Numbered from the stretch's first letter, positions 1,448-25,740 are shown. The stretch is DNA of 64,000 bases from an uncultured virus (IMG/VR IMGVR_UViG_3300027373_000191) (IMGVR_UViG_3300027373_000191), one strand, 5' to 3'. Made by a program: numbers and translations. The notes: generated by a model not told the origin, from the letters alone.

Positions 1448-4400
1448 TTATTTATCTTTAATCTTATACCAATCTTTAGACACTTTACTTATTCTTTTTA
1501 ATTCATTATCCCATGGCTTAAAATCAAGATTGCTAAGTTCTTCTAATTCTCTTTCGGTTAATCCTAGATACTGAGACATACCTCCTGTGGCATGAGCCGT
1601 ATTCAACCCTATTGTTAGGGCTATCATTCTTTTCTTTATATCATTTGAAGATAAGGAATCTTCTATCAGTTCTTTAGTATCGTTTATTCTTTTTATTGTT
1701 TTCTGAATAGCATTGACTCCTTTCTTATTATTTATGGTACTGGCCCATTGATCATACCCTGATGTTTTGGCGACTTCCTCGAAAACATAATAAAAAGGCC
1801 CTTGATACAAATGTATTTGATTTTCTCTGATAATTTCCGGTATTTCATATATCTCTGTCGGGGTCTCAAATATAAAAAATTCCCACCAATCATCGGGCAT
1901 AAAATTTTCTATTGCTTCTTTTATCTGGTATGGTTTTAAAGATAAATTAAAATCACTTGTTTCAAATCCATTGTTTGTTAAATAATCGGCAAATTCAGAA
2001 TCAAGTCCACTTTGTTCTATTTCTTCTTTTGCTATTTGAATTTGTTCAATTTCTGTTTTTCCTTCAAATTCGCTAGAATCAAAATAATCATGATTAAGAA
2101 ATGAAATAGCTTCCTCAAGTCCTTTTTTTGTATCTAAAATTTTATGAAGACTTCTGCTTAATATAATATTTTCAATGGATGTTCTCAGAGGATTCCCATA
2201 TTTATCATATCCTGTAATTTTATCTAAATTTTTTGAAATTTCTTCCGATAATTTTTCCAAAACATTTTCTTTAATATCAATATTAAAGAGAGAATTGCCT
2301 TCAGAACCTTTATTCATAAGCAATCCTTCAAGATGAGATCTAAGCCATCCTGATTTAGTATGATCATTTACCCAAGAAGTATATACTGATTTCATTTTAT
2401 TTAATATTTCTTTAGATAATAATTCTAATCTTTCTTTCATTTGATAATATTTTGGAGTATTATTCAAATATTCTCTTTTATCTAAATCAAACAACATATA
2501 TTCTAATTTATGTATCTCTTCAATGGGTTTAGTGTCTAGTCTTGTCCAAATAGAAGTTGGATCTTCTGATTCTTCGTCATCACCATATTCGTCACTACTG
2601 TTATATTCTTCGTTAAACTGAGATTTTTTATACCAATTGTTTTTTGTTGAGCTATTTTTTTTTATCTCGTCATCTACTATTCCTATTATTTCTACGGTAT
2701 CTCCAGAATATACTCGATATTCTCTTTCAGCAGGGAAAAAAGTTCCAAATGTATTTGGTTTTGATCTTAATTCAAGAATTCCTATTTTACTGACATCTAT
2801 TTTCGATAAAGCATTGTCATCATTAAAACCAAACCAAGCATATTCCATTCCGCCAGCTTCCTGCCTAAACAGGGCAAACGCCTTGTACAATCCCATTGAA
2901 TCCCTTATTCTTTCTTCTTCATTCATATCCTTTAAAAAAGAGTTAGAATATTCCCTTCCGTCTCCTCCTCTCCAGACGTTTTTGTCTTCTTCGTCAAGTA
3001 AGGAATATCCCTTATCCAACATTTCTTCTACTGGTTCTATAAAAAAATTCTCTATCTTTTTCCCTCTTAAGAAATATTTTAATGGTCCAAAACTTGACTC
3101 GAAATATTTTTCTATTTCATTATAATATGGCCTTTTGGCTCCTGTCCCCATCTTAGCCATTTTTATCATTTCTTCTGGAGATAAATCACCATTTGCTGTT
3201 CTTGCTCCTTCAACTAGATTAATTTTTATAGAACGAGCATAATCTATATCTGTCGTTAAGCTGATGGAATTACTTTCTCCACCACCCAATCCATTTGCCT
3301 CTTTAACCCCCAGATCATCCCTAGTCTTCAACCCTAATTGCATAACCTTGTCCATAGCAACAGTAACATGGTACAAAATATCTGGAAGAGGTTTGAACTT
3401 TTTTTTCAAATCAAGTGGGTAAGGATATCCATTTTCTATTGCATCTTCAACAGAAATGAATCCCATTGAAATAGCTGACAAAATGCTATTCGTCCACATC
3501 GTTTCCTTTGTGCTTAATTCTTTTCTAGCAATACCCCAATCTTCCTCTCTTCCAGAAGAAATAACATTTTCGTAGTTTTCTAGAAGTATTGGGTCTGTCT
3601 CACCTAGGAAATCTTTTTTGTTCATTTGCCAAGGTTCTAAAGCTGAGGTTTTATACCAATGAGTTGTTTTTGCTGTTTTGTTTCCATAATTATATTCTAA
3701 CCATAGCATGGCTTCGTCTTTATTATTGAATTCTCCTCTAATTTGAGACTCCCAAGCATGATTTATTATTTCTCCAATGTGAGGTCCGCCATTTCCGCCA
3801 ATAACACCAAGGATATCATTTCCATTGATAAAACTTATTTTTTGCCGAAGATAATTCATTGCAACGGCCAAAGCTTGGTCTTTATTTTTCACAGAACCCT
3901 CTAATTGTTTTTTGTAAGAATATATTAATGCTTCTCCAAGAAATTTATTTCTAGGTGCTGATGGATAAATTTCTAAGATATCCTTTCCTTGAATCAATGG
4001 TTGTGCTTTATTTTTATAAACATTTTCCTCTTTTGCAAGATCAACCATTCTTTGCGCACTATCAGGCAATCCTCCTTCAAGTGGCGGTCTTCCACCCATA
4101 TCAGATCTAATGACCATTTCTAATTGTTCAATAGTCGCTGGAAATAAAGATTCAGCTATCTGCCTAACATTAACATTTTTTGATTTTTCATCAAAATCAA
4201 TATGCTTCATATGACTACCAACAAGAGGAACAACTTGATTTATTATATTTTTTTGTATACCAATTCTCTCTAAAAAAGTTTTTGTTAGTGGAACACTTTC
4301 TTCTGCGTGTCCATGAGAAGTTACTCTCTCTACTCCATCTTTCATCTCTCTTTTTGTTGTATTCGCTTTCCCTAAATCATGACACAAAGCACTGGCTAGG

Positions 4401-7400
4401 AGAACTGCTCTAGATTCCCCTTTAATTCCTCTCTCATCAGCTATTACAGCAGCAGCATCCATAACATGGGCTGTATGGACATCAACAGAACCACAGGGGT
4501 GCCAAATAGAATCTTGTTCAACATCGACAATCCCTTTTAATTCTGGATAGTTATCAATCCATTCAGTATCAATAAGATATTGAATAATTTTACTTGGGTA
4601 TTTACCTTTAGTAAACATCTTCATCCACTCTTCTTTAACTCGTTCGATAACTAATGGTTCGTTTTTTAGTGTTGCCGCCATTTTAGCTGTCTCAGGTTCG
4701 ATATTAAATCCAAATCTGGATGCGAATTGCATCCCGCGAAGTACGCGAAGCGGATCCTCAGCAAAGGCTGGACTTGTTGCCCTTAGAATTTTATTATTCA
4801 AATCTTCTATTCCGCCAAAATAATCATGTATTTCATGAGTAAGAGGATCATAAGCTAAACTATTTATGGTAAAATCTCTTCTTGATGCTGCTTCTTTAGG
4901 CTGAATTGATGGATCAAATTCCATCTCAAAACCACGATGACCCTTCCCTATTTTATTATCTCTTCTAGGAACAGAAAAATCATAATCATTACCATCTTTA
5001 TCAACAAACTTTATTACACCAAAAGCCTGTCCGACAATATCTACTCTCCCATATTGTTTTAGCATCTTTACCAAAGATTCATAATTTGCGCCATATACTT
5101 CAACGTCAATATCTTTTGACTTATTACCTAGAAAAGCGTCTCTTACGGCACCGCCAACAATCAACGATTGATATCCATTTCTTTTGAATGTTTCAAATAT
5201 ATCTATAAGCCCACTTGGGATAGGAATATCTAAATCAATTTTATATTTTCCTTCATTTTGTGCTACTTTATACCAATTCTTCATGTCACTCTCTTTTGTT
5301 TTACTCTTTGTTTTTGCAAATAAAGGCTGTCCATTATAAAGGATGTCTTCTTTCATTTTTCTCGATATAGGAAGATAATAGTTTATCGAAAATTTATCTT
5401 GACCTTCAGGTATCTTAATCCTAGACAGTTCAACGCCATATTGCCTACCTATCTTCTTGGCTATAGAAGGGATTATTGTATCATAGAAATTGATCATTCC
5501 ACTACCGCCAATTTCAATATCTTCTCCCTGTATCTTTGTCTCTCCTTTATCAAGAATTCTTTCAGTCAATTCTTTGCCTATTACTTCTGTCATCCTTTTT
5601 CTTATTTTTTCTTTATCCCATCCATCATAATATGAATAATTTTCATCAAATACGGGCCTTCCATTAACGTCTATAACTGTCAATCTGTCTCTATATGCAG
5701 TACCGTCCATTTCCCTATAAGTCATAAAAGATATTTCATTAATTTTTTTTCTCAAAGAATATCTTTCTGCTTGTTGCTCCCCTGTTGTCCAAGAGATACC
5801 ATCAAAATCCTTTTCTGCTGCCCATCTAGCCATTCTTTTAAACATTAGACTAGCCCATGATTTTGTATCGGAAAATGGAGCTTCATCGACAGAATCTCCC
5901 TTTATTTTTTCTTTTTCAAAAGAAATTGTTTCATTAATATAATTTGGTATTCCAATATAATCATTTATCTCATTGCTCATTTTTTCATTTCTTGAAACAA
6001 AATTAAGGAAGCTTAGTATATCAAATGACGACAATCTGTATTTTGCTTCTTCCCATTCTCTTTTATCAGGATTGTTTTCTAGTAATGAATTGAAAGATTG
6101 TTTTATTTTATTATATCTTTTATCTAACTCTTTTTTATCACTTAGTTTATTATACCCGTTTTCTCTTCCCTCTTGATGCCAATCCGATTGTATTTCTTCA
6201 ATAAAAAATACATCGCCTTTATCTTCGTCCTTAATAGAAGAATATCTCGCATGAGATATAACATTTTGGGCATCAAAATGTTTATTATAATTTTTAGTGT
6301 TTATTGCAGGGTTTTTCCAAGTAAGAAGTAATTCTCCATAATTTTCAGATTCTTCTCCATTTAGAGAATATTCTTTATATTGATACTTTTCTTCGCCTTC
6401 TTTTTGATTTCCTAGAGCATCTCTTTCCGCTACTCCTTCCGCTTCATTTTCATCATTTTCTTCTGCTAATTCATCTCCATCTGGTGAGAAAACGAAATAT
6501 TTATCAACAATTGCGTCTAATCTAATTGTATAACCATATTCTCTATCGTTTTTTTCATACATGGAGATTTCTTCATCGTTCATTCTAAAATTTGCCTCTT
6601 CTCTGGCTTTTCCGTCATAATAACCTCCGAATTCTTCGAAATCTTCTTCTTCAGAATATTTTTCCATAGCTTCTCTGTAATATTCTTCAAACATATTTTC
6701 ATCAAAATCATTTTCTACTGGTTCAAATTCTGTCCAATCTAAATGATTTTCTAATTCTTTATCTAATATTGGATGAACATCTTCTAATTTTATATTATTA
6801 TTATCTAGAAAATCTATTATTTCTTTTTTCTCCATCTTTCTGTCCTGACCTTCAATCCAATCTGTTATTCCTGACCACATTATTTCTTCTTTTTTCACAC
6901 CTAAATTCGAATTTAATAATTGTAGTAAAGATTTTGGAGAGTTTATTTTAGGAAGTTTTTTTTCTAATACTCTTTGTAGTTTTGAATAAAAAACTGGAAC
7001 ATATTCCCTTTGTTGTGCTTTTTTATACCAATTATTATTCTTTGAAATTCTTGCTGGTCCAGATTGCGAGTAAAATCTCTTAATATCGTTTATTACTCTC
7101 TTAGAGTTGACTCGGCCATTATTTCTTGGATCAGCACTTCCGTATAAGAAAGGTACTTTATTTCCTTCTCCAAAGCTAAGATCAAGATAAAGCTCTTCAA
7201 TTCCATTTACAGCAGATTCTATGGCTCTGTATTGATAAGCAGTCGGTTCCTTTACTATATCCATAGAACTTGATCTTCCGAAAGAGCATCTAATTATTCC
7301 CAGCATCATGAAATTATTTAAACCTTCATACTGCGAATCTGATTCTGGAAAATATTGGGCCATTTCATGATGATCTAAACCTCTGCCGCCACTCCCTCCA

Positions 7401-10400
7401 CCAGACATATCTAATAATGATCCATCAGGAAGAATAAAACCTGCCTCATAGATATTATTTGTCAATCCATAATCTTTTTTTGCTTGTAATATTGGATCTG
7501 TTTTTCTTTTGTTATCAGAAACACCCAGTGGTCCATATACAGATACAAAAGCGTTATAATGATCTGGAAAGATATTTCTATCTATACCTCCGCTTCTATT
7601 TGTTAGTCTAAAGAATATCTCTTTAGTGTCTTCTCCTCCCCTAAAATCATAACCATCGGCGTTCATCATGTCATTTATTCTAGACCAATCATCATCTGAT
7701 ATTTTATTCAAATCTTTAATTGTTATTTTTTTATCAGCACTTTTATACCAATTATTGCTTTTTGAATATTCTTTTCTTAATGCGTCTTGAACTGAATCTG
7801 GGAACATATCTGGTTGTTTAGGAGCATTCCTTCTTCTTTCTTCTACTTTTTTAATCGTTTCCAGTCTCTGCTCTTCTTTATTTCTTAATAATGCTTTTTC
7901 CTGTTCTATTTCGTTATCTTTTTTCTCTTTTTTATTCATCAAAGAAATATATGCTTCTCTTGGGATCTCGGCGGTAAGACTTCCATCTAATTCGACTCTT
8001 GTGTCTATATCATCGCTTTTTACAAAAACAAAGACTCTACTTCCGGGATCTCCTATTCCGACAGAATAACCGCCTCTAGTTTCTTTTATATACGCATTCC
8101 TTACTTTATTATGAGTAAAGACATTTTGAGACATTTCTCTTTGTGCGATCTTGTACCAAGATTTTTCGTTTTTTTGTAAAAATATAAAATCAGGTCCATA
8201 TTCTTCGTTCATATCTGAAATAAATTTACCAGCATCTTCCGCTTCTTCTGGAGTTACTTTTTCATTTTTATCGTTATATTGCCAAACAGCATCTTCTGAT
8301 TTTTTATTAGTCATTATCTTTTGAACTTCAAAAAAAAGATCAGTGGGAATAATCCTAGAAAAAATCGGGTTTTTCTGATAAACATCCATATTGCTATTCC
8401 AAGGTGGCGAAAACAATAACATTGATAATTGCCAGATGTCTGTTGGAATATTAAAATCTCCCATATTATTACAATAGGGTCTTACTTCTGATTTTACTCT
8501 TTCATTTCTTACATAACTATCTACTATTTTCTTTGCGTTTAAAATAAAATCTGAATAATCTTGTCTTTTTTCAAGATAAGAAATATATTCATCCCTTTTC
8601 CTTGGATACCATTCTTCAACTTTTTCTGGTGGAACAGCTTCTTCTTTAAAATCATATTTTCCATTTTGTTTCGTTTCGTTTAATACCTTAGAAATTTCAT
8701 CTTCTACTTTACCTCTCAACATTTTCCCCATAAAATATGACGTAAATATAGAAGACATTAACTTAGCCTTTTGTTCAACATTCATTTCATAATTTGCCGT
8801 TTCTACTGCAATCTCATTAAGAATATCTCCACTTTTAACCTCAGCCTCTTCTTTGGATAATCCATAAAACTCCATAGGAAAACTTTCAACAATATCTGAT
8901 TTTATTTGGAAAATTAGTCCTGTTTCTAAATTTTTATTTCCTTCAATTTCTTTTAAAAAGAAATCATACAATCTATTGCGTATAAAACCGACATTACCAA
9001 AATTTATGGCAGCTATTTCTGATGGCGATGTTAGCCATTCTGAAGGACTATCCCCAGAATTACCAAAAAAACCCATACTTGTCATCATAGAATGAGAAAC
9101 TTCATGCCAAAGAGTACCTTCTTCTTGAAAAGATAATTGTTGATATTCTGTATTATCTAGTCCAATAATATTTTTTATTTGCTTTTCTGTATCATCATCT
9201 ATTACTTTTCCAGTGTAAACAACTATTGCGGGAGAATCAATTAAAGAGTATTTTGGAGCATAAAATCCAGATACATTATCTGGTAAATGATCAAAAGAAT
9301 TGGCCTCTTCACTAAATTCGTTCATTACAAATTCATTTATTTTATTTCTATTAATTAGAAATATTTTTGTATCCATAATTTGATCATATGCAAACTCAAA
9401 AGAAGAAAGATATTTACCTTTCTTATGATCGTAACCTGCATTGTCATTTTTTGGTAAAATTTTAGATATCATATCATATATATATGAATATAAATTTGGA
9501 AAATCTTTTAATTCTTTTTCTGTACCATATTTTTTTATTATTTCTGGAAATTTTTCTTTTATTTTATTAGAATCATTGTTTTTCTTAACGGTAATATCTT
9601 CATATAACTTATTTTTCTCATCTTCAGTGAACCCGTCTCTGCAAGCAATATTAAAATGTACTTTTAAAGCATCCGAAGGATATTTTAGAGCGCGATCAAT
9701 GACGGCTTTTTTACTATATAACCCACTAGTTAATGTGAACCATGTGCAATTTTCTGAAAAATATTTATCTCTAATATCATTAGGAATATTGGAAATAATT
9801 TCTACTGCTAAATTATACCCTGTGTCTAATACTTGTTTCGATTGGTCAAAAGTATCTTGATTATAATCACCCTCATTAATAATATTTTTCATTCTTATTA
9901 TATATTTTTCAGCGACAAAAGAAGAGGCTTCACTCATTATTTCTTTTAATATTTCATTATCTTTAAGAGAAATTAAGAAAAGATTTTTATTTTGTGACTC
10001 AGATAATTTTTCATAAAACCATTTTTTAAAGTTATTTGATTTTTCCACTTGGTTCAAACCACATCCAACATAAGCGTCATGCATATATCCTCTATATGAA
10101 AAATCACTAGATATTGAACAATCTTCGACAACATTACCAATATCTCTTATTTCATTATTGGAATCAATCAAATATATCTTACCTAATTCTAATTCTGGTT
10201 TTAAATATTTGTATTTTTGTAACAACTCTTCTTGTGTAAGATGCTTATTTTCTTCTTCATAATTAAGTTCCTTATCTTCAATAATATAATAAAGAAGATC
10301 ATTTTCTACTGTTTCTTTCTTATAATTATCCTCATTTATAAAATATATTCCATAATCTCTATAATTTTCTTCACCATTATTTATATCTTTATTTATTTCA

Positions 10401-12322
10401 TTAATTATTTTTTCAATTATTTCTTTTTTTACTTTGCATGATCCTACCATAAAATATGAACGATATTCTCCTAGTTCAGGGACAGAGACAACAGATAAAT
10501 CTTTTTTTTCTGTTAAATATGTATCATGATTTTCTGCTTTTTTTAAAAGAGTTTGTAATTCCTCTAATAAATATTCTCCATATTTATTTTCAACAGAATT
10601 ATATGTTTTTGATAAATGATCTCTAATCATTGGATAAACTTCTGAATGTGCTAAAAGTTTTTTAAAAAAGTATTCTGATTGTCCCTTTGTTTTATCTCTT
10701 CTCTTTATTTGCGCTAAAAACAAAATATCAAAAACATTTTTTTCTGATGGACATTCAAAAAAATCTTCTATTTTTTTTATTTCATAATTATCATCATAAG
10801 ATACCGATATATTGTATTTTTCTGGATATTTTTTCTTCATAGTTTCATAAACTATTCCAGAAAAATCATTTGGGTCCGAATAAAATACTTCATTTACTGA
10901 TGTAATTATATTTGTGTCTGTCATTATTTTTTCATGATTATTAACAAGATCCTCTAGAAGATCGTAAGGTATCTTCATGTGGGATTTGGGGAAAAAATTT
11001 GGAATTTTTTTACTTTTAATCAAATCCCATGATTTAGTGTAATTATACTGATTTAATATATGATTTTCAAAACAACTTAAATAATCATACCAACAAAAAT
11101 AAACAATGTTTGGGAATCTTTCAAATAATAATAATCTTTTAGACAATGGAGTATATCTAGAGTAAGACAAATCTTTTAATTCGTCTTTCTGTTTAGAATT
11201 TAATTCACTTTCATCTAAATCAAGAATATCTTTTGATTTCTGGTCTTGAATACCAGAAAGGAAGTCTTCTGCACCAGCTATTTTTATACTATCTTTTTTT
11301 TTTGGATACCAATTACTTTCATATTTTTCCATCAAAGAACTACTGGCCAAGGATTCGCCTTTTATGCCAAGAAGAAGCGGAAGGACTCCATCAGTTTTCC
11401 TTTTATTATTAAGAAGAACAATAGCTTCCCTTAGGAATCTTTTTTCAGCAGAAACTGGGCCATCCTCTCCCATATCACCATTGGCATGAGTCGCTTCATG
11501 AACCATAACCTCTCCAAGAACAAGGATTTCTATTTCTTCTTTATTCCTTGCCATAAAAACATCCATATCTTCTGGGCCAAATGTCCAATTCTGACCACCA
11601 TACTGTATATTAAATTGCATCATTTCTTTGTTATCTGGGAATTGGTCATTAACGTTCTGTGGATAGTTCTTCATAAACGAATTTACTTCGTTTTGCATAC
11701 TTTCTGTAAGCTCTGAAATTTCAGACTGTATCCTATTAAGATTCAATCTAAAACCTTTACCCTGAAGCTCTGTCTCGTATACGCCAAGATGACCCTGATC
11801 AGAAGAAACTCCTACCCAATTTATGCCTTGCATAACACCAGACAGACTTGTCTGTCCTATTAACTGAATTGCCTTTAAAGAGGCTCCTGAGCTTATTCCT
11901 GACGTTTCAATCTCAGAAGTGTCTGGGAACCCGCCTTTATCTTGATTAATTTGCTGAGTATTAACATTCCCCAAATCAGTTTGGTCTGGTATTTGGGGGT
12001 CAATATTTTCTTGTGCTATTTTTTTTATGATATTTGATGAGGCTATAATGTCGTTACTGAATTCCTGAAGAAGTTCTTCATATATTTCGATAGCATAATC
12101 TTTCCCTTGTCCATATATTTTGCCTAATTCAGACAACCAATCATCATCATTGACTATTTTTTTTATAGATGACCAGAATTCTTCAGAATTTGGATCATAA
12201 TTTTTAAAAATATCCAATATTTTTTTTATTTTATATATAAAATCACTATCTTTTTCAGATTTTTTTATTAAACAAAAATTAAACTCAGAGAATTTTAATC
12301 TTTTATTTTCTTTTTTTTCCAT
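1448..12322 (-). CDS. 3624-aa polyvalent/polyprotein-like virion protein (two HExxH modules, CCA-adding enzyme + HD, ART-like module, unknown modules)
   Basis: Uninterrupted 10.9-kb ORF; VHEATH and WHEVSH; VGGAVRD..DID, RRDFTIN, EDPLR, CHDLGK; LYHVT..SLTT..EREY; modules separated by WYKx[A/S] motifs. Confidence 0.9.
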   Translation of the reverse strand: MEKKENKRLKFSEFNFCLIKKSEKDSDFIYKIKKILDIFKNYDPNSEEFWSSIKKIVNDDDWLSELGKIYGQGKDYAIEIYEELLQEFSNDIIASSNIIKKIAQENIDPQIPDQTDLGNVNTQQINQDKGGFPDTSEIETSGISSGASLKAIQLIGQTSLSGVMQGINWVGVSSDQGHLGVYETELQGKGFRLNLNRIQSEISELTESMQNEVNSFMKNYPQNVNDQFPDNKEMMQFNIQYGGQNWTFGPEDMDVFMARNKEEIEILVLGEVMVHEATHANGDMGEDGPVSAEKRFLREAIVLLNNKRKTDGVLPLLLGIKGESLASSSLMEKYESNWYPKKKDSIKIAGAEDFLSGIQDQKSKDILDLDESELNSKQKDELKDLSYSRYTPLSKRLLLFERFPNIVYFCWYDYLSCFENHILNQYNYTKSWDLIKSKKIPNFFPKSHMKIPYDLLEDLVNNHEKIMTDTNIITSVNEVFYSDPNDFSGIVYETMKKKYPEKYNISVSYDDNYEIKKIEDFFECPSEKNVFDILFLAQIKRRDKTKGQSEYFFKKLLAHSEVYPMIRDHLSKTYNSVENKYGEYLLEELQTLLKKAENHDTYLTEKKDLSVVSVPELGEYRSYFMVGSCKVKKEIIEKIINEINKDINNGEENYRDYGIYFINEDNYKKETVENDLLYYIIEDKELNYEEENKHLTQEELLQKYKYLKPELELGKIYLIDSNNEIRDIGNVVEDCSISSDFSYRGYMHDAYVGCGLNQVEKSNNFKKWFYEKLSESQNKNLFLISLKDNEILKEIMSEASSFVAEKYIIRMKNIINEGDYNQDTFDQSKQVLDTGYNLAVEIISNIPNDIRDKYFSENCTWFTLTSGLYSKKAVIDRALKYPSDALKVHFNIACRDGFTEDEKNKLYEDITVKKNNDSNKIKEKFPEIIKKYGTEKELKDFPNLYSYIYDMISKILPKNDNAGYDHKKGKYLSSFEFAYDQIMDTKIFLINRNKINEFVMNEFSEEANSFDHLPDNVSGFYAPKYSLIDSPAIVVYTGKVIDDDTEKQIKNIIGLDNTEYQQLSFQEEGTLWHEVSHSMMTSMGFFGNSGDSPSEWLTSPSEIAAINFGNVGFIRNRLYDFFLKEIEGNKNLETGLIFQIKSDIVESFPMEFYGLSKEEAEVKSGDILNEIAVETANYEMNVEQKAKLMSSIFTSYFMGKMLRGKVEDEISKVLNETKQNGKYDFKEEAVPPEKVEEWYPRKRDEYISYLEKRQDYSDFILNAKKIVDSYVRNERVKSEVRPYCNNMGDFNIPTDIWQLSMLLFSPPWNSNMDVYQKNPIFSRIIPTDLFFEVQKIMTNKKSEDAVWQYNDKNEKVTPEEAEDAGKFISDMNEEYGPDFIFLQKNEKSWYKIAQREMSQNVFTHNKVRNAYIKETRGGYSVGIGDPGSRVFVFVKSDDIDTRVELDGSLTAEIPREAYISLMNKKEKKDNEIEQEKALLRNKEEQRLETIKKVEERRRNAPKQPDMFPDSVQDALRKEYSKSNNWYKSADKKITIKDLNKISDDDWSRINDMMNADGYDFRGGEDTKEIFFRLTNRSGGIDRNIFPDHYNAFVSVYGPLGVSDNKRKTDPILQAKKDYGLTNNIYEAGFILPDGSLLDMSGGGSGGRGLDHHEMAQYFPESDSQYEGLNNFMMLGIIRCSFGRSSSMDIVKEPTAYQYRAIESAVNGIEELYLDLSFGEGNKVPFLYGSADPRNNGRVNSKRVINDIKRFYSQSGPARISKNNNWYKKAQQREYVPVFYSKLQRVLEKKLPKINSPKSLLQLLNSNLGVKKEEIMWSGITDWIEGQDRKMEKKEIIDFLDNNNIKLEDVHPILDKELENHLDWTEFEPVENDFDENMFEEYYREAMEKYSEEEDFEEFGGYYDGKAREEANFRMNDEEISMYEKNDREYGYTIRLDAIVDKYFVFSPDGDELAEENDENEAEGVAERDALGNQKEGEEKYQYKEYSLNGEESENYGELLLTWKNPAINTKNYNKHFDAQNVISHARYSSIKDEDKGDVFFIEEIQSDWHQEGRENGYNKLSDKKELDKRYNKIKQSFNSLLENNPDKREWEEAKYRLSSFDILSFLNFVSRNEKMSNEINDYIGIPNYINETISFEKEKIKGDSVDEAPFSDTKSWASLMFKRMARWAAEKDFDGISWTTGEQQAERYSLRKKINEISFMTYREMDGTAYRDRLTVIDVNGRPVFDENYSYYDGWDKEKIRKRMTEVIGKELTERILDKGETKIQGEDIEIGGSGMINFYDTIIPSIAKKIGRQYGVELSRIKIPEGQDKFSINYYLPISRKMKEDILYNGQPLFAKTKSKTKESDMKNWYKVAQNEGKYKIDLDIPIPSGLIDIFETFKRNGYQSLIVGGAVRDAFLGNKSKDIDVEVYGANYESLVKMLKQYGRVDIVGQAFGVIKFVDKDGNDYDFSVPRRDNKIGKGHRGFEMEFDPSIQPKEAASRRDFTINSLAYDPLTHEIHDYFGGIEDLNNKILRATSPAFAEDPLRVLRGMQFASRFGFNIEPETAKMAATLKNEPLVIERVKEEWMKMFTKGKYPSKIIQYLIDTEWIDNYPELKGIVDVEQDSIWHPCGSVDVHTAHVMDAAAVIADERGIKGESRAVLLASALCHDLGKANTTKREMKDGVERVTSHGHAEESVPLTKTFLERIGIQKNIINQVVPLVGSHMKHIDFDEKSKNVNVRQIAESLFPATIEQLEMVIRSDMGGRPPLEGGLPDSAQRMVDLAKEENVYKNKAQPLIQGKDILEIYPSAPRNKFLGEALIYSYKKQLEGSVKNKDQALAVAMNYLRQKISFINGNDILGVIGGNGGPHIGEIINHAWESQIRGEFNNKDEAMLWLEYNYGNKTAKTTHWYKTSALEPWQMNKKDFLGETDPILLENYENVISSGREEDWGIARKELSTKETMWTNSILSAISMGFISVEDAIENGYPYPLDLKKKFKPLPDILYHVTVAMDKVMQLGLKTRDDLGVKEANGLGGGESNSISLTTDIDYARSIKINLVEGARTANGDLSPEEMIKMAKMGTGAKRPYYNEIEKYFESSFGPLKYFLRGKKIENFFIEPVEEMLDKGYSLLDEEDKNVWRGGDGREYSNSFLKDMNEEERIRDSMGLYKAFALFRQEAGGMEYAWFGFNDDNALSKIDVSKIGILELRSKPNTFGTFFPAEREYRVYSGDTVEIIGIVDDEIKKNSSTKNNWYKKSQFNEEYNSSDEYGDDEESEDPTSIWTRLDTKPIEEIHKLEYMLFDLDKREYLNNTPKYYQMKERLELLSKEILNKMKSVYTSWVNDHTKSGWLRSHLEGLLMNKGSEGNSLFNIDIKENVLEKLSEEISKNLDKITGYDKYGNPLRTSIENIILSRSLHKILDTKKGLEEAISFLNHDYFDSSEFEGKTEIEQIQIAKEEIEQSGLDSEFADYLTNNGFETSDFNLSLKPYQIKEAIENFMPDDWWEFFIFETPTEIYEIPEIIRENQIHLYQGPFYYVFEEVAKTSGYDQWASTINNKKGVNAIQKTIKRINDTKELIEDSLSSNDIKKRMIALTIGLNTAHATGGMSQYLGLTERELEELSNLDFKPWDNELKRISKVSKDWYKIKDK

Positions 12323-12335
12323 AGTATATTTTTCC

Positions 12336-12755
12336 CTATAAGTTTAGATGACTTTTTATCCTTATTATTTCGCATTCGCTTTCTCTTATGTTTTTGTTTA
12401 GTTCGTTTAACTCTTCTTTTGTAGCCATTTTTTCCGCATAGTCAACTCTAAGGTTTGCTAATGTTGCGTTTATTTCTAAAATTTTATTAAATATTTCTTC
12501 TTTTGATACGGTATTACTTTGAGCATTATGGTCAAAAATTTTATGGTCAACGTATTCATTCATTTCTTTTATTATTTTTTCTTCAAATTCTTTATCGTCT
12601 CTCTTCATTTTTGGCCATACTGTTTTCCAAAAAAAAGTAAACATGCTATAAAAAGTAAAACTAATAACAGTAGCTACTACTGCTATTATCATTATTTTTA
12701 ACTGAGCATCAATTTCCTGAAGAAAAAAATTATCAAAAAAATCCCACATTGCCAT
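12336..12755 (-). CDS. single-TM membrane protein with C-terminal coiled coil (holin-like topology)
   Basis: Hydrophobic IMIIAVVATVISFTFYSMFTFFW followed by a charged heptad-rich region; coupled to the upstream gene by a TAATG overlap. Confidence 0.5.
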   Translation of the reverse strand: MAMWDFFDNFFLQEIDAQLKIMIIAVVATVISFTFYSMFTFFWKTVWPKMKRDDKEFEEKIIKEMNEYVDHKIFDHNAQSNTVSKEEIFNKILEINATLANLRVDYAEKMATKEELNELNKNIRESECEIIRIKSHLNL

Positions 12756-13696
12756 TACCCCATTATACTGAATTTATTTATTTCATTCTCTATAAGGTCC
12801 AGCATAGCTTCTGGATTAGAATTTTTTATTCCAAATTTTTCTATTTTTTCCTCTAGCGATTTATTCATTATAGACAAATTTATTTCTGCTAATTTCTGTT
12901 TAGTTATATCAACTACTGTAATTAATACATAGTTACTATACTCTTTTTCTTTTTTTAAGAAAACAGATGAACAGCTAAGAAGAACATCTACTTCTTTACC
13001 ACTAACACAAACAAATCTACCTTCTATTGGTTTTTTTATAGAAAATATAATTTCATCTAATGAAAGATCTTTAGTTTCTTTATAATTACATTTATCTATA
13101 AATTTCTTAAATTTTAATATCAAATCAAAATTATGATTATACTCTGCCATTGTTTCGCATTTTAAATCAAAAATATCTAAAAAAGCTTGATTCAATTCCT
13201 CTATTTTACCTTCATTATTTATTAAACAAATTCCAGAAGGAATAGTATTGTATATACTTCTCAATAATTCTTTTTTATATTTTAAACTACATTCTAAATC
13301 CATTCTCAATAAAGAATATCTTATGGATCTTTCTAGACTAGACGCAGATATTTCTCCCTTTACTAAATAATCAGAAATACCTTCCGAAAGGAGATTTGTT
13401 GATTTTTCGAAATCTGGGAATCCAGTTATCATTATAATTGGTTTATCTTCTATTTTTGACTTTATGATCATTGCTAAATCTAGTCCATTTTCTGGACCAA
13501 TTTTATAATCTATTAAAAAAACATCATATTCATTCAAAAAACCATATTTTTCAAAATTACAAATAGCATCAGAAAATGAATTTATATGGTCAAGGTGGTA
13601 TTTCCCCGGCTTTATATCTTCCAAATAATCTTTAACTAGAAGAATATCATCTTCATCATCTTCGATATATAGAATTTTTATTCTACACTTATCCAT
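12755..13696 (-). CDS. response regulator, REC + PAS domains
   Basis: ILYIEDDEDD, FLIDY..GPENG, IIMITG, DYLVKG; PAS-like IPSGICLINNEGKIEELNQAF...VVDITKQK. Confidence 0.9.
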   Translation of the reverse strand: MDKCRIKILYIEDDEDDILLVKDYLEDIKPGKYHLDHINSFSDAICNFEKYGFLNEYDVFLIDYKIGPENGLDLAMIIKSKIEDKPIIMITGFPDFEKSTNLLSEGISDYLVKGEISASSLERSIRYSLLRMDLECSLKYKKELLRSIYNTIPSGICLINNEGKIEELNQAFLDIFDLKCETMAEYNHNFDLILKFKKFIDKCNYKETKDLSLDEIIFSIKKPIEGRFVCVSGKEVDVLLSCSSVFLKKEKEYSNYVLITVVDITKQKLAEINLSIMNKSLEEKIEKFGIKNSNPEAMLDLIENEINKFSIMG

Positions 13697-13712
13697 ATAA
13701 AATATCCTCCTT

Positions 13713-14159
13713 TTACTTGGAAGAATTTGGCAATTTTACAAAACCAAACCAATACTTAGTTACATTTTCAAGAAGATCTTCAAAATCTGTAAGGTGAGTT
13801 GGTTTAGCTATGTATGAATTTACTCCAAGTTTATACCCTCTCTCAATATCATCTTCATTGTTAGATGAAGTGAATAATATTATCGGTATTGTTTTGAAGT
13901 CATGATTTTGTTTTATTTCTTCAAGAACTTCAAACCCATTTTTTTTTGGCATATTTATATCTAATAATACAAGTGAAGGTGTGGGAGAATCTTCTTCAAA
14001 TTCTTCTTCTCTTTTAAGGTATCTTAGAAATTTTTCACCATCATCAACATTCCTTATCTCTATGCCATTGATCTTAGATAAAGCATCTTGAATTGAAAAC
14101 ACATCATCATCATCATCATCGACTATTAGAATTATGTTCTTTTTTATTTGACTAGTCAT
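13713..14159 (-). CDS. single-domain response regulator (Rcp1-like)
   Basis: ILIVDDDDDD, LVLLDINMPKKNG, IPIILFTSS, GVNSYIAKP, and the YW...VKLP tail typical of Rcp1-type receivers. Confidence 0.92.
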   Translation of the reverse strand: MTSQIKKNIILIVDDDDDDVFSIQDALSKINGIEIRNVDDGEKFLRYLKREEEFEEDSPTPSLVLLDINMPKKNGFEVLEEIKQNHDFKTIPIILFTSSNNEDDIERGYKLGVNSYIAKPTHLTDFEDLLENVTKYWFGFVKLPNSSK

Positions 14160-15285
14160 CTTGCCTATCCTTTTCTTGACGAATTTTTGGAAGAGTCACA
14201 ATAAACGTAGCCCCTTCTCCTTCTTCGCTTATAGCTGTTATGTCTCCATGATGTCTATCTACTATTCTCTTACAGATAGCAAGGCCAACACCAGTCCCAG
14301 CATATCTAGAATTACTGTGTAATCTTTGAAATATCTGGAAAATCTTTCCTAAATGTCTTTCATCAAATCCTATACCATTATCTTCTATATAAATAGCAAC
14401 TTTACCTTCTGGCAATTCCTGTGAATATATTTTTACTATAGATTTTTCATTTTCTTTTGCGAATTTAAATGCATTGCTTAGTAAATTCTGGAATAATTGT
14501 CTAATCATTGTCGCATCCGCTTCTATAGTAGGCAAACTACCTATAATGCTTACGTCTGCTTCTGAATTAATTATTTTAATTTCTAAATCACTGATTACAT
14601 TCTTTATAACATCCTCTATATCAACATTAGAAAACTCAATATCTCCAGTATTTGTTCTTGAATACATAAGAAGACCATTAAGTAGACTCTCAAGTCTCAT
14701 AGAAGCATTAGTCATTCTTGTTAAATAATTTTTTATTTTTAATTTTTTATCATTATCAAAATCTTCAATATATCCTATTTCCTTCTGTAATCTTTCTCCA
14801 AAAGCTACAATTTTCCTCATTGGTTCTCTAAGATCATGAGACGCTGCTGAGGCAAATTCGTCAAGTTGTTCATTTTTTTCTATTAATTTTTCTATATACA
14901 TCCCTATTTTTGCTTCACTATCTATTCTTTCTGTAATATCCTTTTTGATAGCAACATAATATTCTGTCCCATTTTTCACTGGAGTAATCGACATTTCTTC
15001 ATAATATAAACTACCGTCTTTTTTCTTATTAATCAATGTCCCTGACCACACTTGTCCAGAAGATATTGTAGACCACAAATCATGATAGATAGACTCTGGC
15101 TGAATTCCAGATTTAAATATTCTTGGATTTTTACCAATTAATTCAGAAATAGTATACCCAGTTTTATCAAGAATATATTTGTTTGCCCATAATATATTCC
15201 CCTTTTTATCACAAACAACTATTCCACAGGCAACATTCTCAAAAATAACGTTTATAGAATTTGTACCAAGATATTTAGTAGGCAT
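14152..15285 (-). CDS. cytoplasmic PAS-domain sensor histidine kinase
   Basis: PAS (GYTISELIGKNPRIFKSG), H-box ASHDLREP, N-box QNLLSNAFKF, G1 DNGIG, G2 GTGVGLAI. Confidence 0.95.
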   Translation of the reverse strand: MPTKYLGTNSINVIFENVACGIVVCDKKGNILWANKYILDKTGYTISELIGKNPRIFKSGIQPESIYHDLWSTISSGQVWSGTLINKKKDGSLYYEEMSITPVKNGTEYYVAIKKDITERIDSEAKIGMYIEKLIEKNEQLDEFASAASHDLREPMRKIVAFGERLQKEIGYIEDFDNDKKLKIKNYLTRMTNASMRLESLLNGLLMYSRTNTGDIEFSNVDIEDVIKNVISDLEIKIINSEADVSIIGSLPTIEADATMIRQLFQNLLSNAFKFAKENEKSIVKIYSQELPEGKVAIYIEDNGIGFDERHLGKIFQIFQRLHSNSRYAGTGVGLAICKRIVDRHHGDITAISEEGEGATFIVTLPKIRQEKDRQDD

Positions 15286-15734: not shown

Positions 15735-16004
15735 ATCAATATAATCGACGACAGCCGTCCTAACCTCGACTTGGCTATATTTCATCCCAAGTTCTTCAAT
15801 AAACGTTTCTAATTCAGATTTAATCATGAGCATTCTTCCTGCCTGATCTTCATCCATACCCTCTTGTTGAGCTACTTCCTCAGACACATTATTATGAAAT
15901 TCTTCTAATTGTTGATCGTTATAATCTGATGTTTGGGCCTTCTTTATTTGCCCACAATCAAGACTATCAAAATTTTCTCCACTTTGGATATATATATTCA
16001 TCAA
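15702..16004 (-). CDS. hypothetical acidic protein (contains KKAQ motif)
   Basis: ATGA overlap with the upstream gene; last codons overlap the IS-like left end. Confidence 0.65.
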   Translation of the reverse strand: MMNIYIQSGENFDSLDCGQIKKAQTSDYNDQQLEEFHNNVSEEVAQQEGMDEDQAGRMLMIKSELETFIEELGMKYSQVEVRTAVVDYIDGAKENPTILL

Positions 16005-17068
16005 ACTCTCCTTTTTTTAGGATAAAAGTCATAACCGGGTCTTCCAGTATCTTTCTTTTTACCTTTTGGTTCTTCATTATTATTGTCATTGAGATAATAG
16101 CCTCTTTTTGCGTTATCTAATATTTCAAATTTCTCTTCTCGTCTCTGTTGCCTTTCTCTTTTTTTTCTTCTCACATAAGCCTTATGTTTTTCTCTTTCTT
16201 CTAACAAATGCTTTATCATTGTTGTTTCTTGAGCTTGAACTATTCTTATATTTCTGGAAGCCTCAAAAGAAGTCGGGGAGATTGTTGTTCCAAATATTTC
16301 TTCTTTTATTATGCTATCTATTTCAGGAACACGAGGGATATATTCTAAAATACCTATTTTACGATATTCTTCATAAGCCATCTTAGGATTTGACTCAAAT
16401 GTTTTTTTAACAGTTCTCTCTACCATCTTACTATTTGGGTGTTCTTCTAGAAATTTTATTAAATATGGCACAAAAGACATAACAGTTTCTGTATATTTAG
16501 GATCCTCTTTCAATCCCATTTGAAGCTTAAATCTTATCCCTCTTAAAATAATCTTTGGATTTATAGATAATGTTTTAGATGGAGACAATGGAGTTCTTAA
16601 TATTTTATTTTTTATATCAGATATACCTTTTTTTGTAATATCAATTATTTCATTAGAATATGGGTCTAAAAGAAGTGTATTTATTGTAAAATCTCTTGAA
16701 TAAATGTCTTTATTAATTGAGTTTGGCTCAACATCTAATAAATACAATTGATCAACAATATGAGGGACATTATAGTAAGAATTGTGGAATTCTACCTCTC
16801 TACCAGAAGGCATAACAACTAACGCTGTCCCAGAAGATTCATAAATAACTGGTTCTGGTAAATCATATTTTGCGGAAACAAAAAAAGCAAGGTCAAAGGC
16901 ATTCCCATTCTCTTCAGTAATATCTAAATCAGTGTCATTGTTAACTCCATTTCCAGATACTATATCCCTAGGAAAACCTCCGACGATATATATCTTCATC
17001 TTGAGGTCTTTTGCAACTTCATTTATTATATTTAATTCTTTTTTGATATCTTCTGGAATACTTATCAT
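16001..17068 (-). CDS. class II tRNA nucleotidyltransferase/poly(A) polymerase family protein, divergent
   Basis: IVGGFPRD..DLD, SRDFTIN; motif D reads INPKIILRGIRF instead of EDPLRxLR. Confidence 0.85.
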   Translation of the reverse strand: MISIPEDIKKELNIINEVAKDLKMKIYIVGGFPRDIVSGNGVNNDTDLDITEENGNAFDLAFFVSAKYDLPEPVIYESSGTALVVMPSGREVEFHNSYYNVPHIVDQLYLLDVEPNSINKDIYSRDFTINTLLLDPYSNEIIDITKKGISDIKNKILRTPLSPSKTLSINPKIILRGIRFKLQMGLKEDPKYTETVMSFVPYLIKFLEEHPNSKMVERTVKKTFESNPKMAYEEYRKIGILEYIPRVPEIDSIIKEEIFGTTISPTSFEASRNIRIVQAQETTMIKHLLEEREKHKAYVRRKKRERQQRREEKFEILDNAKRGYYLNDNNNEEPKGKKKDTGRPGYDFYPKKRRV

Positions 17069-18185: not shown

Positions 18186-19322
18186 TTAATATGGTCTCGA
18201 TAAAGAGTATTGCCCACGGTTAGATATATAATCATCCCATGAATTAACTCTTTGTCTCATGTCAGAATCAAAATTATTAGAATATTCTGATTGATACCAT
18301 CCACTTCCGGGTCCAGTTAGGTTTCTGTTATGAGGCCATGAACCGGGATTTTCTTTTGTTTTACGGGGATCAAGAGGGTTATATCTTCTCTGATTCTTTA
18401 GTCTTCCTCTCTGTGTCCAAGTATTTGATGGTTGAATAGCGTCTCCACCAGAATTTCTTTTCCTAACTCTAACTATTCTCTTTTTCCCATCTTTACCTTT
18501 AACTTCTTTTATCTCATACTCTTTGTTTGACTTTTGTTTCTGAGTATCAAATTCATTAGAAAACCCATCCTTGACACTAGACCAAGGAATAACTCTTTGA
18601 TCTTCCGTCATATCTAGCCTTCCAAAAGGAGTATTGGCAGGATTGTTATAAGTCGAACCACTGGAAGTTGGATTGGCAGGAGTAGCTGCCTCTTTTAGAA
18701 TATTTATTACCGAAAATCCTCTTCTATTTCTTCTGTGTTTTTTAACACGACTTATTTGTTGTGTATAATGATTTTTATGCCCACAATTATTACATTTATA
18801 AGCAGCCTCTCTCTCTCCATTATTATTCGTAAAGGAATATCCCAACCATTCAAATTCTTCTAAGGGCATTCTACATTTTTCACATTTATCGGTGAGCCTT
18901 TCTTTTCCCTTCTTGACAATTGAATTAACACCTTCGAATCCTGAAGGTAAGTTAGAAATATTACTTGGAAGCTCTGCATTTTCTGTATTTCTTGTTTTTA
19001 CATCTTGTATGTGCTGACCAGAAGTAAAGGTAGCGTCTGCTCCTACATATTCTTGAGAGAATTCTTGAGATGTTTTCATTAATTTTATTGTGGCTATTGC
19101 CGATTTATTATCTTTCAAGTCTTCTTTTATTTCTTCACATGTCTTCTTATATTCTTCAAGTCTATCAACTGGAACCCAACATTTTTTATCTTTAATTTTT
19201 AAATTAAAATACTCCCCCATGGAGCCACTAGGGCCACAAGAATTTTTTGGTCTTTCAGCATATTCTATGCCGTCAATCTCAATTGATTCTTTATTATCAG
19301 AAGATATTTTATACCAATTCAT
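18186..19322 (-). CDS. hypothetical virion-associated protein with N-terminal NWYK motif and zinc ribbon
   Basis: Starts MNWYKISS; CEKC...CNNC; low-complexity N/P/G-rich C-terminus. Confidence 0.7.
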   Translation of the reverse strand: MNWYKISSDNKESIEIDGIEYAERPKNSCGPSGSMGEYFNLKIKDKKCWVPVDRLEEYKKTCEEIKEDLKDNKSAIATIKLMKTSQEFSQEYVGADATFTSGQHIQDVKTRNTENAELPSNISNLPSGFEGVNSIVKKGKERLTDKCEKCRMPLEEFEWLGYSFTNNNGEREAAYKCNNCGHKNHYTQQISRVKKHRRNRRGFSVINILKEAATPANPTSSGSTYNNPANTPFGRLDMTEDQRVIPWSSVKDGFSNEFDTQKQKSNKEYEIKEVKGKDGKKRIVRVRKRNSGGDAIQPSNTWTQRGRLKNQRRYNPLDPRKTKENPGSWPHNRNLTGPGSGWYQSEYSNNFDSDMRQRVNSWDDYISNRGQYSLSRPY

Positions 19323-24612: not shown

Positions 24613-25740
24613 TTACCTTTGAAAATTAAAATTTATTCCATTTTTTTCTAGGAATGGTTTTAATTTATCTATTGGAATAATGGCGTTAAGCCCAGAACCT
24701 GATTTTTCTGATGAATTTTCTCCTATAATAGCAGCGGCAATTCCGATTACAGCTAAATTATCTTTTTTTACAATAGGACCACCACTATTGCCCGGAAGAA
24801 TATTTGTTGACACAAACATATAGGGCGTCGTCTGATTTCCTTGAGTATAATTTATTGGCGCACTAGAAACAATCCCTGTCCCAACAACATTTTCATATCC
24901 TAATGGCGTTCCAACTATATATATCTCTTCTCCAATTTGAACTTCCGAAGAATTGCCTAAACTAAAATATTGTGGAGACTTAAAACTATCGTCATTAACA
25001 ACAAGAACAGCAACATCTAAATTTGTGTCATAGGCCCAAACATATGCACCATATTTTTTACCATTCATAATTAATGTAGTCTGAGTACCCTTTAAATTCC
25101 CATTGGGAATAACAACATGGGCACATGTCATTATGGTGTTTTCTCCAATAAAAAAACCTGTCCCTATTTCCATCGTTTCTCCGTTTACGGATCGCAAAGT
25201 AACTGATCGTTGTAAAGCTAATTGAATATTATCTTTATTGTTTTGAGGATTAGATGAGTTCTTATAATTATCTGTAGCAGGAGAATCCGTAGATTTATTA
25301 TCTAAAGTCTTGGAAGGAGATTCTCCGACGATATCCTTATATGTATCTGTAATCCAACTTTGATTATTCCAAAATGGTATTTTTGGACCGCCGCTTCCCC
25401 ATTGTGCTATTTTGATTCTATTATTTTTTATAGAAGAAGTTTGTTTGTTTCTTGTTTTTTTAAAAATATGATTTTTATACCAATTTTTTTTGAGATTCTT
25501 TTTTTGTTTCTTTTTTTCTTCCCTTTCTTTTTCAATTTTTTTTTCAATTAACGGTGTTTTATCAGATTCACTAAAATAATCGTTTGGGTGGTGATTATTG
25601 TCGCTTGGAGCCAATAATCCAGTATGTGCATCTCCACCCATATTCCCATATGGAGATAATCTTGTTTTATCCGACAATTCACTTCCGCCAAATGGATCAG
25701 TTCCAAAGCCAGCAGATACTTTATACCATGTTTTGTTCAT
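24613..25740 (-). CDS. trypsin-like (S1/HtrA-type) serine protease with WYK-containing N-terminal extension
   Basis: GTGFFI, TCAHV, DVAVL, PGNSGGP; N-terminus MNKTWYKVSA, internal KNWYK and KIAQ. Confidence 0.92.
   Translation of the reverse strand: MNKTWYKVSAGFGTDPFGGSELSDKTRLSPYGNMGGDAHTGLLAPSDNNHHPNDYFSESDKTPLIEKKIEKEREEKKKQKKNLKKNWYKNHIFKKTRNKQTSSIKNNRIKIAQWGSGGPKIPFWNNQSWITDTYKDIVGESPSKTLDNKSTDSPATDNYKNSSNPQNNKDNIQLALQRSVTLRSVNGETMEIGTGFFIGENTIMTCAHVVIPNGNLKGTQTTLIMNGKKYGAYVWAYDTNLDVAVLVVNDDSFKSPQYFSLGNSSEVQIGEEIYIVGTPLGYENVVGTGIVSSAPINYTQGNQTTPYMFVSTNILPGNSGGPIVKKDNLAVIGIAAAIIGENSSEKSGSGLNAIIPIDKLKPFLEKNGINFNFQR

Follow-up and report, generated by a model that had tools for sequence, protein, structure and literature searches.

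Tag-delimited modules in a 3624-residue protein of an uncultured virus and their predicted processing by a head-maturation protease

The tag-delimited gene and its modules

The stretch of DNA analysed here (the window, 64,000 nucleotides) is the initial 64 kb of the 73,289-base record of an uncultured virus (IMGVR_UViG_3300027373_000191; G000). On its minus strand, an open reading frame (ORF) from 12322 to 1448 runs without interruption under translation table 11 and encodes a protein of 3624 amino acids (aa) and 419.8 kDa, hereafter P0001, which is divided into modules by a short repeated motif built around Trp-Tyr (WY) (Table 1). The tripeptide WYK occurs seven times in P0001, compared with a mean of 0.245 in 2000 shuffled sequences, none of which reached seven, and WY[KR]x[AS] occurs six times, compared with a shuffle mean of 0.03. 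WY lies at aa 338 (nucleotide 11311), 1389 (8158), 1525 (7750), 1765 (7030), 2350 (5275), 2889 (3658), 3230 (2635) and 3618 (1471). Six internal copies have the canonical form WY-K-x-A/S, and two copies, at aa 338 and aa 1238, are the degenerate WYP. These positions agree with the roughly eight modules that an initial annotation had cut at WYK motifs, with the WYP at aa 1238 as an extra, and the other motifs quoted there are all present (HExxH at aa 275 and 1073, AGFILPDG at 1627, FYSKL at 1778, HARY at 2024, EEIQSDWHQ at 2042 and LNTAHATG at 3573). The predicted sizes of the eight main pieces are 38, 124, 16, 27, 69, 61, 39 and 46 kDa. P0001 is also encoded on a 206,947-base contig, and its ORF is letter-identical in locus L077 (13,995 of 13,995 bases) and in one Logan contig. 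The two identical copies exclude a local consensus slip; they possibly come from the source sample and are hence not independent.

M6 was the only module with a match to a named family: no family was found for M1-M5, M7 or M8 in Pfam (none below E 0.01), PHROGs or NCBIfam. M6 matched PF01743 (E 9e-23), PF01966 and phrog_2244 (E 4e-67), and its Pfam domains cover residues 39-524 of 539, bearing out the initial annotation's view that this module starts and stops almost exactly at motifs. The motifs GGxVRD..DxD, RRD and EDxxR stand at aa 2390, 2404, 2481 and 2522, and we take them to be those of the head domain of a class II CCA-adding enzyme. The best NCBIfam match, PRK10885, reached 180 bits, below the equivalog cut-off of 451. 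M6 thus appears CCA-adding-like, a description that leaves CCA-, CC-, A- and poly(A)-adding enzymes undistinguished. In relatives, a homologue of the zincin-like M1 domain forms the first domain of a conserved gene of the head region, near terminase and portal, and the H, E, H, E and E of H-E-x-x-H and the downstream glutamates are invariant in the alignment. In M7, LYHVT...SISLTT...ERE fits the ADP-ribosyltransferase (ART) pattern H/R..S-x-S/T..E-x-E. The triad is therefore present, but the profile support for the earlier label 'ART-like' is weak: comparison with a hidden Markov model (HMM) of 14 tagged ART-like modules gave E 0.05, hhalign gave a probability of 15% and E 0.002, and a single-sequence AlphaFold prediction had a predicted local distance difference test score (pLDDT) of 34.

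The family of M8 is large (427 representatives) and unnamed, and W88, H92, W97 and H348 are invariant in it. In an AlphaFold model built from 121 sequences (pLDDT 71.6), residues 1-29, which hold the tag, are disordered and residues ~31-387 are ordered, so that order extends to residue 387, adjoining the last WY. H92 and H348 are invariant in the 121 sequences, the predicted fold is a four-helix bundle with a large insertion, and the two histidines are a possible metal or catalytic site. A Foldseek search with the model in PDB and BFVD gave no match at E 0.001; the best VIA Z score, 7.3, was to generic four-helix bundles, which is no proof of a new fold. The 121 family members had no consistent Pfam match. 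PDB sequence searches with M7, M8 and the head protease described below gave no match, ESM Atlas gave no usable match, scans with single modules or small alignments gave none in viral contigs or GTDB contigs, and a word-based protein search with M4 gave none. When a phage collection was compared with M4 and with an M8 homologue, no record matched; M5 matched four records.

Table 1. Features of the polyprotein gene and of neighbouring genes in the window (arrows mark predicted cuts)
Feature	Position	Strand	Description
P0001 polyprotein ORF	1448..12322	-	3624 aa, tag-delimited
M1	11312..12322	-	aa 1-337; leader of ~100 aa to K101-I-A↓Q, then zincin-like HExxH domain (H275)
Junction 1, degenerate	11276..11311	-	WY at aa 338; predicted cut K347-I-A↓G (K-T-S↓G in relative P0002)
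M2a	8612..11311	-	aa 338-1237; second HExxH (H1073), downstream SPSEIAA glutamate
M2b	8159..8611	-	aa 1238-1388; begins at degenerate WY without K-x-A/S
M3	7751..8158	-	aa 1389-1524; tag WYKIA↓Q
M4	7031..7750	-	aa 1525-1764; GFILPDG...DH domain; tag WYKSA↓D
M5	5276..7030	-	aa 1765-2349; unnamed domain; tag RIS↓K-NNN-WYKKA↓Q
M6	3659..5275	-	aa 2350-2888; class II tRNA nucleotidyltransferase (CCA-adding-like) and HD domain; tag DMKN-WYKVA↓Q
M7	2636..3658	-	aa 2889-3229; weakly ADP-ribosyltransferase-like; tag KTA↓K-TTH-WYKTS↓A
M8	1472..2635	-	aa 3230-3617; all-helical; tag WYKKS↓Q
Terminal tag	1448..1471	-	WYKIKDK and stop; sites RIS↓K and KVS↓K upstream, none downstream, as in P0002
Nucleotidyltransferase, stand-alone	16001..17068	-	homologue of last domain of relatives' metallopeptidase-core gene
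Stand-alone gene starting MNWYKIS	18186..19322	-	tagged orthologue in L035
Trypsin-like (HtrA-type) serine protease	24613..25740	-	carries two WYK tags; in relatives, a conserved gene of the head region
RRXRR-domain gene	25737-26564	-	PF14239; weak HNH PHROG; stop overlaps trypsin-like start by -4

Modules are exchanged at a two-part tag

The motifs are true module borders, and modules have been swapped exactly at the tag. This was shown by comparison with P0002, a 3064-aa relative with the order M1, M2, M3, M4, two other tagged modules, M6 and M8. Six modules are shared (M1, M2, M3, M4, M6 and M8; 38-89% identity), M5 is replaced by the two different tagged modules and M7 is absent. All three switch points fall at the tag: similarity extends through the WYKKxQ that ends M4, stops there and restarts seven residues before the WY of M6, and the M6-M8 join of P0002 lies inside the motif, where the M6 tail is followed by the KSQ of M8. 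M2a is only 38% identical between the two proteins and M2b 58%; M2b may remain joined to M2a. The only M3 homologue found was in P0002.

Small separate ORFs in L046, L064 and L063 include homologues of the two P0002-only modules. M4 homologues occur as stand-alone tagged genes in L064 and L046, and M4 forms the C-terminus of a separate WYK-delimited chain (P0006 and P0007). Between the latter two proteins there is a 200-aa expansion of DUF4116 repeats, and one junction has K-T-A sites and no WY. Among the 149 M8 homologues listed, 121 are 290-420 aa long, and 66 of those have W[YF] within the first 25 residues. In five longer proteins (P0173, P0192, P0197, P0204 and P0223), M8 follows another module at an internal WY; the partner has a separate-gene homologue in three of the five, and the halves of P0192 are separate overlapping genes in L033. 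The initial annotation had proposed looking for relatives with shuffled modules or with stand-alone genes, and both kinds exist, given the exchange at the tag in P0002 and the M4 and M8 homologues that begin M-x-WY.

The full tag consists of WY and K/R-x-A/S, often with a second K/R-x-A/S upstream. In the leaders of M8 homologues, 0, 3, 4, 7 or 13 residues separate WY from K-x-A/S-Q, a variable spacing that fits a tag of two separable elements. At the junctions compared between P0001 and P0002, the lysine is kept, and the middle residue and the A/S are substituted in ways that retain the pattern K-x-[AS]. Conservation of the internal sites was assessed in 74 M1 homologues with a median pairwise identity of 43%. 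A WY lies 45-130 aa beyond HExxH in 68 of them, and six have no scorable WY. This internal WY reads WY[KR]x[AS] in 67 of the 68 and is preceded by an upstream [KR]x[AS] in 62, the typical double site being R-H-A-x4-W-Y-K-x-A-Q; the seed alignment by which the homologues were collected included the upstream R-H-A and excluded WY and the downstream site. Across internal and C-terminal tags, the upstream site was found at 23 of 46, compared with 6.6 expected at random positions and 13.4 after ten-residue local shuffling. Because the adjacent pattern [AS][KR] was likewise frequent (20 of 46), the upstream signal ranks below the downstream one in strength; the matches in L014 and L053 resemble chance and were kept among the 46. 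After removal of duplicate contexts, the first 72 loci, selected by pattern, contained 114 N-terminal tags, and tagged ORFs made up 16 of 788 in genome G002. When [KR][FY]S was considered as a general delimiter in untagged polyvalent proteins, 121 copies were found against 104 expected, with no clear enrichment.

The DNA of the tag, ATG-AAY-TGG-TAT-AA, contains TGA in one alternative frame and TAA in the third. With stops in both other frames, an out-of-frame join at the tag would yield coupled genes and an in-frame join a polyprotein. The upstream gene stops within the tag (overlap of -4 or -14) for 28 of 92 tagged genes, compared with 38 of 396 untagged genes. Tag codons are modestly more uniform than those of other 5′ ends (TAT 85% versus 72-77%; GCA 72% versus 47-51%). 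No strict DNA recombination site was seen in this codon comparison, and the varying synonymous codons imply that there is no fixed DNA site; the codon and stop-overlap counts cover the loci other than L073, L074, L103, L104 and L077. A Shine-Dalgarno-like site was rarer before tagged genes (32 of 109) than before untagged genes (194 of 384) in loci L001-L132. A search for module-skipping variants in one run found none at a tag; a single weak joint (side 22) lay away from the tags and was disregarded. No RNA data set containing the sequence was listed.

Candidate processing enzyme, rival explanations and neighbouring genes

Tag-bearing phages encode a protein of 1830-2000 aa whose N-terminal domain matches a PHROG head maturation protease (E 8e-20) and also gp19 of phage G. 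In all six of these protease-scaffold proteins, K/R-x-A is enriched (33-49 sites, z 4.6-6.3), compared with z ≤2.1 for other K/R-A spacings; for [LI]xE, z was ≤0.9 in five of the six and 2.8 in one. K/R-x-A is kept in at least five of the six at 14 aligned positions, an invariant K-x-A-S directly precedes the protease domain and an invariant Ala follows it. The head protease was found in five of five tag-bearing genomes, the M1 zincin in one and Trypsin_2 in two, counts that distant copies could escape. The capsid protein of the tag-bearing locus L006 shares 55% identity with phage G gp27 and 25-36% with the capsids of Finch, Tunturi_5 and mycobacteriophages. The record of P0001 itself encodes a large terminase, 31% identical to that of the tag-bearing locus L007, and RuvC.

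Leaders within a single family point in the same direction. In M8-family proteins, K-x-A-Q was found in 53 of 65 WY leaders and in 4 of 52 non-WY leaders, and [LI]xE in 33 of the 52 non-WY leaders versus 14 of the 65 WY leaders (Fisher p 1e-16 and 5e-6, respectively, uncorrected for relatedness; 3 of 120 leaders were too short to score). LR756511 has an M1 homologue encoded by a small gene of its own, with a leader free of the WY tag. Elsewhere, tagged partners include ART-PolyVal, PARP-like, ParB-like and Acb1-like domains, which would suit delivery at infection. Tagged genes adjoin capsid genes in several loci, and only two of the 58 ORFs of at least 100 aa in our record start with a tag, neither of them a replication gene. 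In a 735-kb phage (L104; LR756501.1 135688-176203), 10 of 46 ORFs carry aromatic-rich N-terminal leaders that end in Glu, likely a T4-type loading tag; in sequence, such leaders presumably resemble that of T4. The tblastn matches to LR756501 and LR756503 were limited to the nucleotidyltransferase part and give no ground for placing the P0001 phage among Mahaphage. In the metallopeptidase (MPTase)-core family (P0065-P0138), most proteins start M-K/R-I-x-K/R-x-A/S. This leader lacks WY and has the same predicted cut site, and further K/R-x-A sites appear in the consensus within the core module.

From these sequence patterns we consider it fairly probable that the chain is loaded into the prohead and cut by the head-maturation protease after K/R-x-A/S. 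The WY elements would serve as the docking part for loading, cleavage after the A/S would release separate virion-carried proteins, and the upstream K/R-x-A/S would trim the tag from the preceding module. The products ejected into the host would then include a CCA-adding-like enzyme, two zincins, a possible ADP-ribosyltransferase and proteins of no assigned function. Chains may grow or change through recombination or frameshift at the 15-25 bases of tag DNA, where a crossover or frameshift could fuse the genes of an operon into a polyprotein or exchange one module for another. The earlier suggestion of a processed polyprotein is thus strengthened, and we infer that the cut probably lies at K/R-x-A/S beside WY rather than at WYK, and that the head protease is a likelier enzyme than the HExxH domains. 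A wider picture is plausible and is offered tentatively: a plug-and-play cargo system in which one sequence may act as capsid address, cut site and DNA joint, effectors of the phage G lineage may be shuffled between operons and polyproteins, the 420-kDa chain may yield an injected kit of fixed ratio that includes a tRNA-repair enzyme, and a T4-type leader may take the place of the tag in phages with a Glu-specific protease.

Several results weigh against processing by the head protease. Queries for capsid and head protease had no match in the 73-kb record, nor is the scaffold gene in it; the record is thus a fragment of a larger genome, and with its own head genes elsewhere the specificity of the protease is borrowed from relatives. 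The tag profile is biased, since NWYKxAQ DNA patterns served to find most of the loci. Neither a virion proteome nor a cleavage assay was found for any tag-bearing phage. Among cultured phages, phage G is the nearest relative as judged by capsid protein, and it lacks MxWY[KR] starts. Over the whole of P0001, K/R-x-[AS] triplets number 55, compared with 54.6 expected; chance copies are frequent inside modules, and specificity has to come from context. Two of the six canonical internal sites end in Ser, and K/R-x-S is not enriched in the protease-scaffold proteins (z ≤0.2). By the pattern used, the upstream K/R-x-A/S is present at only four of the six canonical junctions; junction 1 is WYP with its site seven residues downstream, and the additional degenerate copy at aa 1238 (nucleotide 8611) has no K-x-A/S. 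Of 96 whole-protein BLAST segments, 11 span a motif, three at M5-M6 and eight at M4-M5, the latter because M4 stands directly before M5 in six untagged polyvalent proteins. In three other untagged proteins M4 and M5 are hundreds of residues apart or in reversed order, which makes them two distinct domains; the two may have been acquired jointly, with the tag added later, and given this adjacency some modules may not have come in as separate tagged genes. A precedent also exists in the N4 virion RNA polymerase, a polyvalent protein with an MPTase domain that is packaged uncut (passages of PMC5512222).

This precedent bears on a reading to which we give a small but real chance, namely that the chain is packaged through its WY tags and stays mostly intact, with internal tags as multivalent anchors only. 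Full-length delivery is described for the N4 enzyme and for the plasmid proteins ArdC and TraC1 (passages of PMC5512222), and the two degenerate junctions agree with it. Anchoring alone, however, has no need of K/R-x-A/S, and the sites conserved on both sides of the internal WY in M1 homologues, in a motif that is enriched in the scaffold, therefore count against an intact chain. That the same sites are cut by an enzyme of the cargo itself, either the M1 zincin or the tagged trypsin-like protease, is unlikely. Iyer et al. propose MPTase autoproteolysis (passages of PMC5512222), the H-E-x-x-H and downstream glutamates of M1 are invariant, and the trypsin-like gene lies beside the MPTase gene in at least seven related loci. 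Both candidates are nevertheless tagged themselves, they are found in fewer of the five genomes than the head protease, the tag-rich G002 and G004 (13 and 14 MxWY[KR] starts) match neither enzyme, and the small M1 homologue of LR756511, with its WY-less leader, looks as cargo would.

It is quite unlikely that the tag addresses a target other than the capsid, such as a ClpA/B-like ATPase or a host or membrane partner, with cleavage after infection. The window does encode such an ATPase, the scaffold proteins hold only zero or one WY each, and no binding partner of WY was identified; against this, K/R-x-A agrees with the head scaffold and borders the head protease, tagged genes stand beside capsid genes in several loci, and neither of the two ORFs of the record that start with a tag is a replication gene. 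Very unlikely, and already largely excluded, are internal motifs that are inert scars of recent fusions of tagged genes, with tag DNA as the place of recombination. Switch points at the motif, the somewhat more uniform tag codons and one junction with a Met are what scars would leave, but the internal double site is near-invariant in a family at 43% identity, the substitutions between P0001 and P0002 preserve K-x-[AS], and synonymous codons vary. That Met, two residues ahead of the WY of M6 in both P0001 and P0002, had been read in the initial annotation as the trace of a fused tagged gene. The upstream KTKES(D/N)M does accompany M6 in P0002, but no strong ribosome-binding site was found. The same Met and its five co-travelling upstream residues would also fit modules made separately from internal translation starts, which is the least probable alternative: a Met within five residues occurs at this junction only, and AGGAG, GGAGG or AAGGA with an in-frame ATG was found at no junction. 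Loading of the chain into the prohead and cleavage by the head protease remains the explanation we prefer.

Other genes of the window touch on this system to varying degrees (Table 1). The L035 orthologue of the free nucleotidyltransferase continues through WYKQAQ into a further module; no tRNA or tmRNA gene was found in the 73-kb record, yet it encodes two nucleotidyltransferases. The protein that starts MNWYKIS has two CxxC pairs and a short motif, present twice, that weakly resembles one in the core module of relatives' MPTase gene; its candidacy as that core module, split off, was not supported (no HMM match, hhalign 1.8%). Just upstream of the polyprotein gene, at 12755-15285 (minus strand), three adjacent genes resemble two response regulators and a PAS histidine kinase by sequence reading, which would be unusual for a phage. 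A Hel308-like helicase with an intein (C-terminal intein match at aa 789-810) is encoded at 19458-22994, and the ClpA/ClpB-like ATPase at 49735-52119, both on the minus strand.

Comparison with known systems

Neither this tag nor chains of this kind were found described in the literature on jumbo-phage capsid targeting, phage G cleavage, prohead-protease polyproteins and huge-phage N-terminal motifs, a search whose scope left subscription papers mostly outside, and 'MNWY' retrieved no phage paper by title. Processing of polyvalent proteins was proposed in 2017, in passages that give no site rule (PMC5512222). Because the borders in P0001 are written in its sequence and name both candidate sites and a candidate enzyme, the question of processing becomes directly testable. 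The tag also allows likely injected proteins of uncultured huge phages to be listed from sequence and defines the unnamed effector families M4, M5 and M8 with exact ends. If the proposal is true, a head protease with Lys/Arg-x-Ala specificity would set these phages apart from T4, phiKZ and SPN3US, whose enzymes are Glu-specific.

Polyvalent proteins join 2-15 disparate domains in a single viral or plasmid-encoded polypeptide and enter the host with the DNA (passages of PMC5512222). P0001 resembles them in its virus origin, its eight or nine modules per chain and its predicted zincin-like MPTase domains, and the kinship that the initial annotation had seen is upheld by these zincins in a large mosaic and by M4 and M5, which are common to untagged members. 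The M5 domain occurs in 55 untagged polyvalent proteins (covering residues 3-583 of 585) and M4 in nine untagged large proteins (residues 6-229 of 240), many of which have LPD, ART-PolyVal or InPase Pfam domains. P0001 differs in that an explicit delimiter is repeated at nearly every border and in that it is likely cut by the head protease rather than by an MPTase; neither the whole protein nor its nine modules matched LPD, ART-PolyVal, PBECR or InPase, and 'CCA' and 'linker' have no occurrence in the main text of PMC5512222.

Head proteases of other large phages also cut at short motifs. In phiKZ and SPN3US, head proteins are processed by gp175 and gp245, respectively, after A-x-E, which removes propeptides (passages of PMC10052503). 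P0001 would share with them internal proteins of a giant phage, a head protease and a three-residue motif, and would differ in that the cuts release several functional modules from one chain. In Bacillus phage G, the head module includes the protease gp19 and the capsid protein gp27 (passages of PMC12484599). Phage G gp19 is homologous to the proteases of tag-bearing phages and has 10 KRxA sites versus 3.5 expected; phage G is unlike those phages in its lack of tagged starts, and the search for a polyprotein covered its first 45 kb.

The closest parallel is the capsid-targeting sequence (CTS) of T4, which is carried by IPI-IPIII and Alt and removed by the prohead protease gp21, an enzyme that cuts scaffold and propeptides at one short motif, L/I-x-E (passages of PMC9026906). 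Like the CTS as described there, the WY tag is a short leader on unrelated proteins and has a predicted processing motif that is the same as the one enriched in the scaffold; its variable spacer would fit separable targeting and processing residues as well. T4 Alt is trimmed at both ends, akin to the predicted sites at both ends of a module. A T4-type CTS also directs packaging and docks on the prohead core, a part that WY would play here. Unlike the CTS, the tag reads WY and K/R-x-A/S instead of L/I-x-E, is repeated as an internal and C-terminal delimiter in a 420-kDa chain known from sequence, and belongs to phages of the capsid lineage of phage G, not T4. P0001 departs from each of the two families in a defining trait and would, by analogy, work like the T4 CTS applied to a polyvalent protein.

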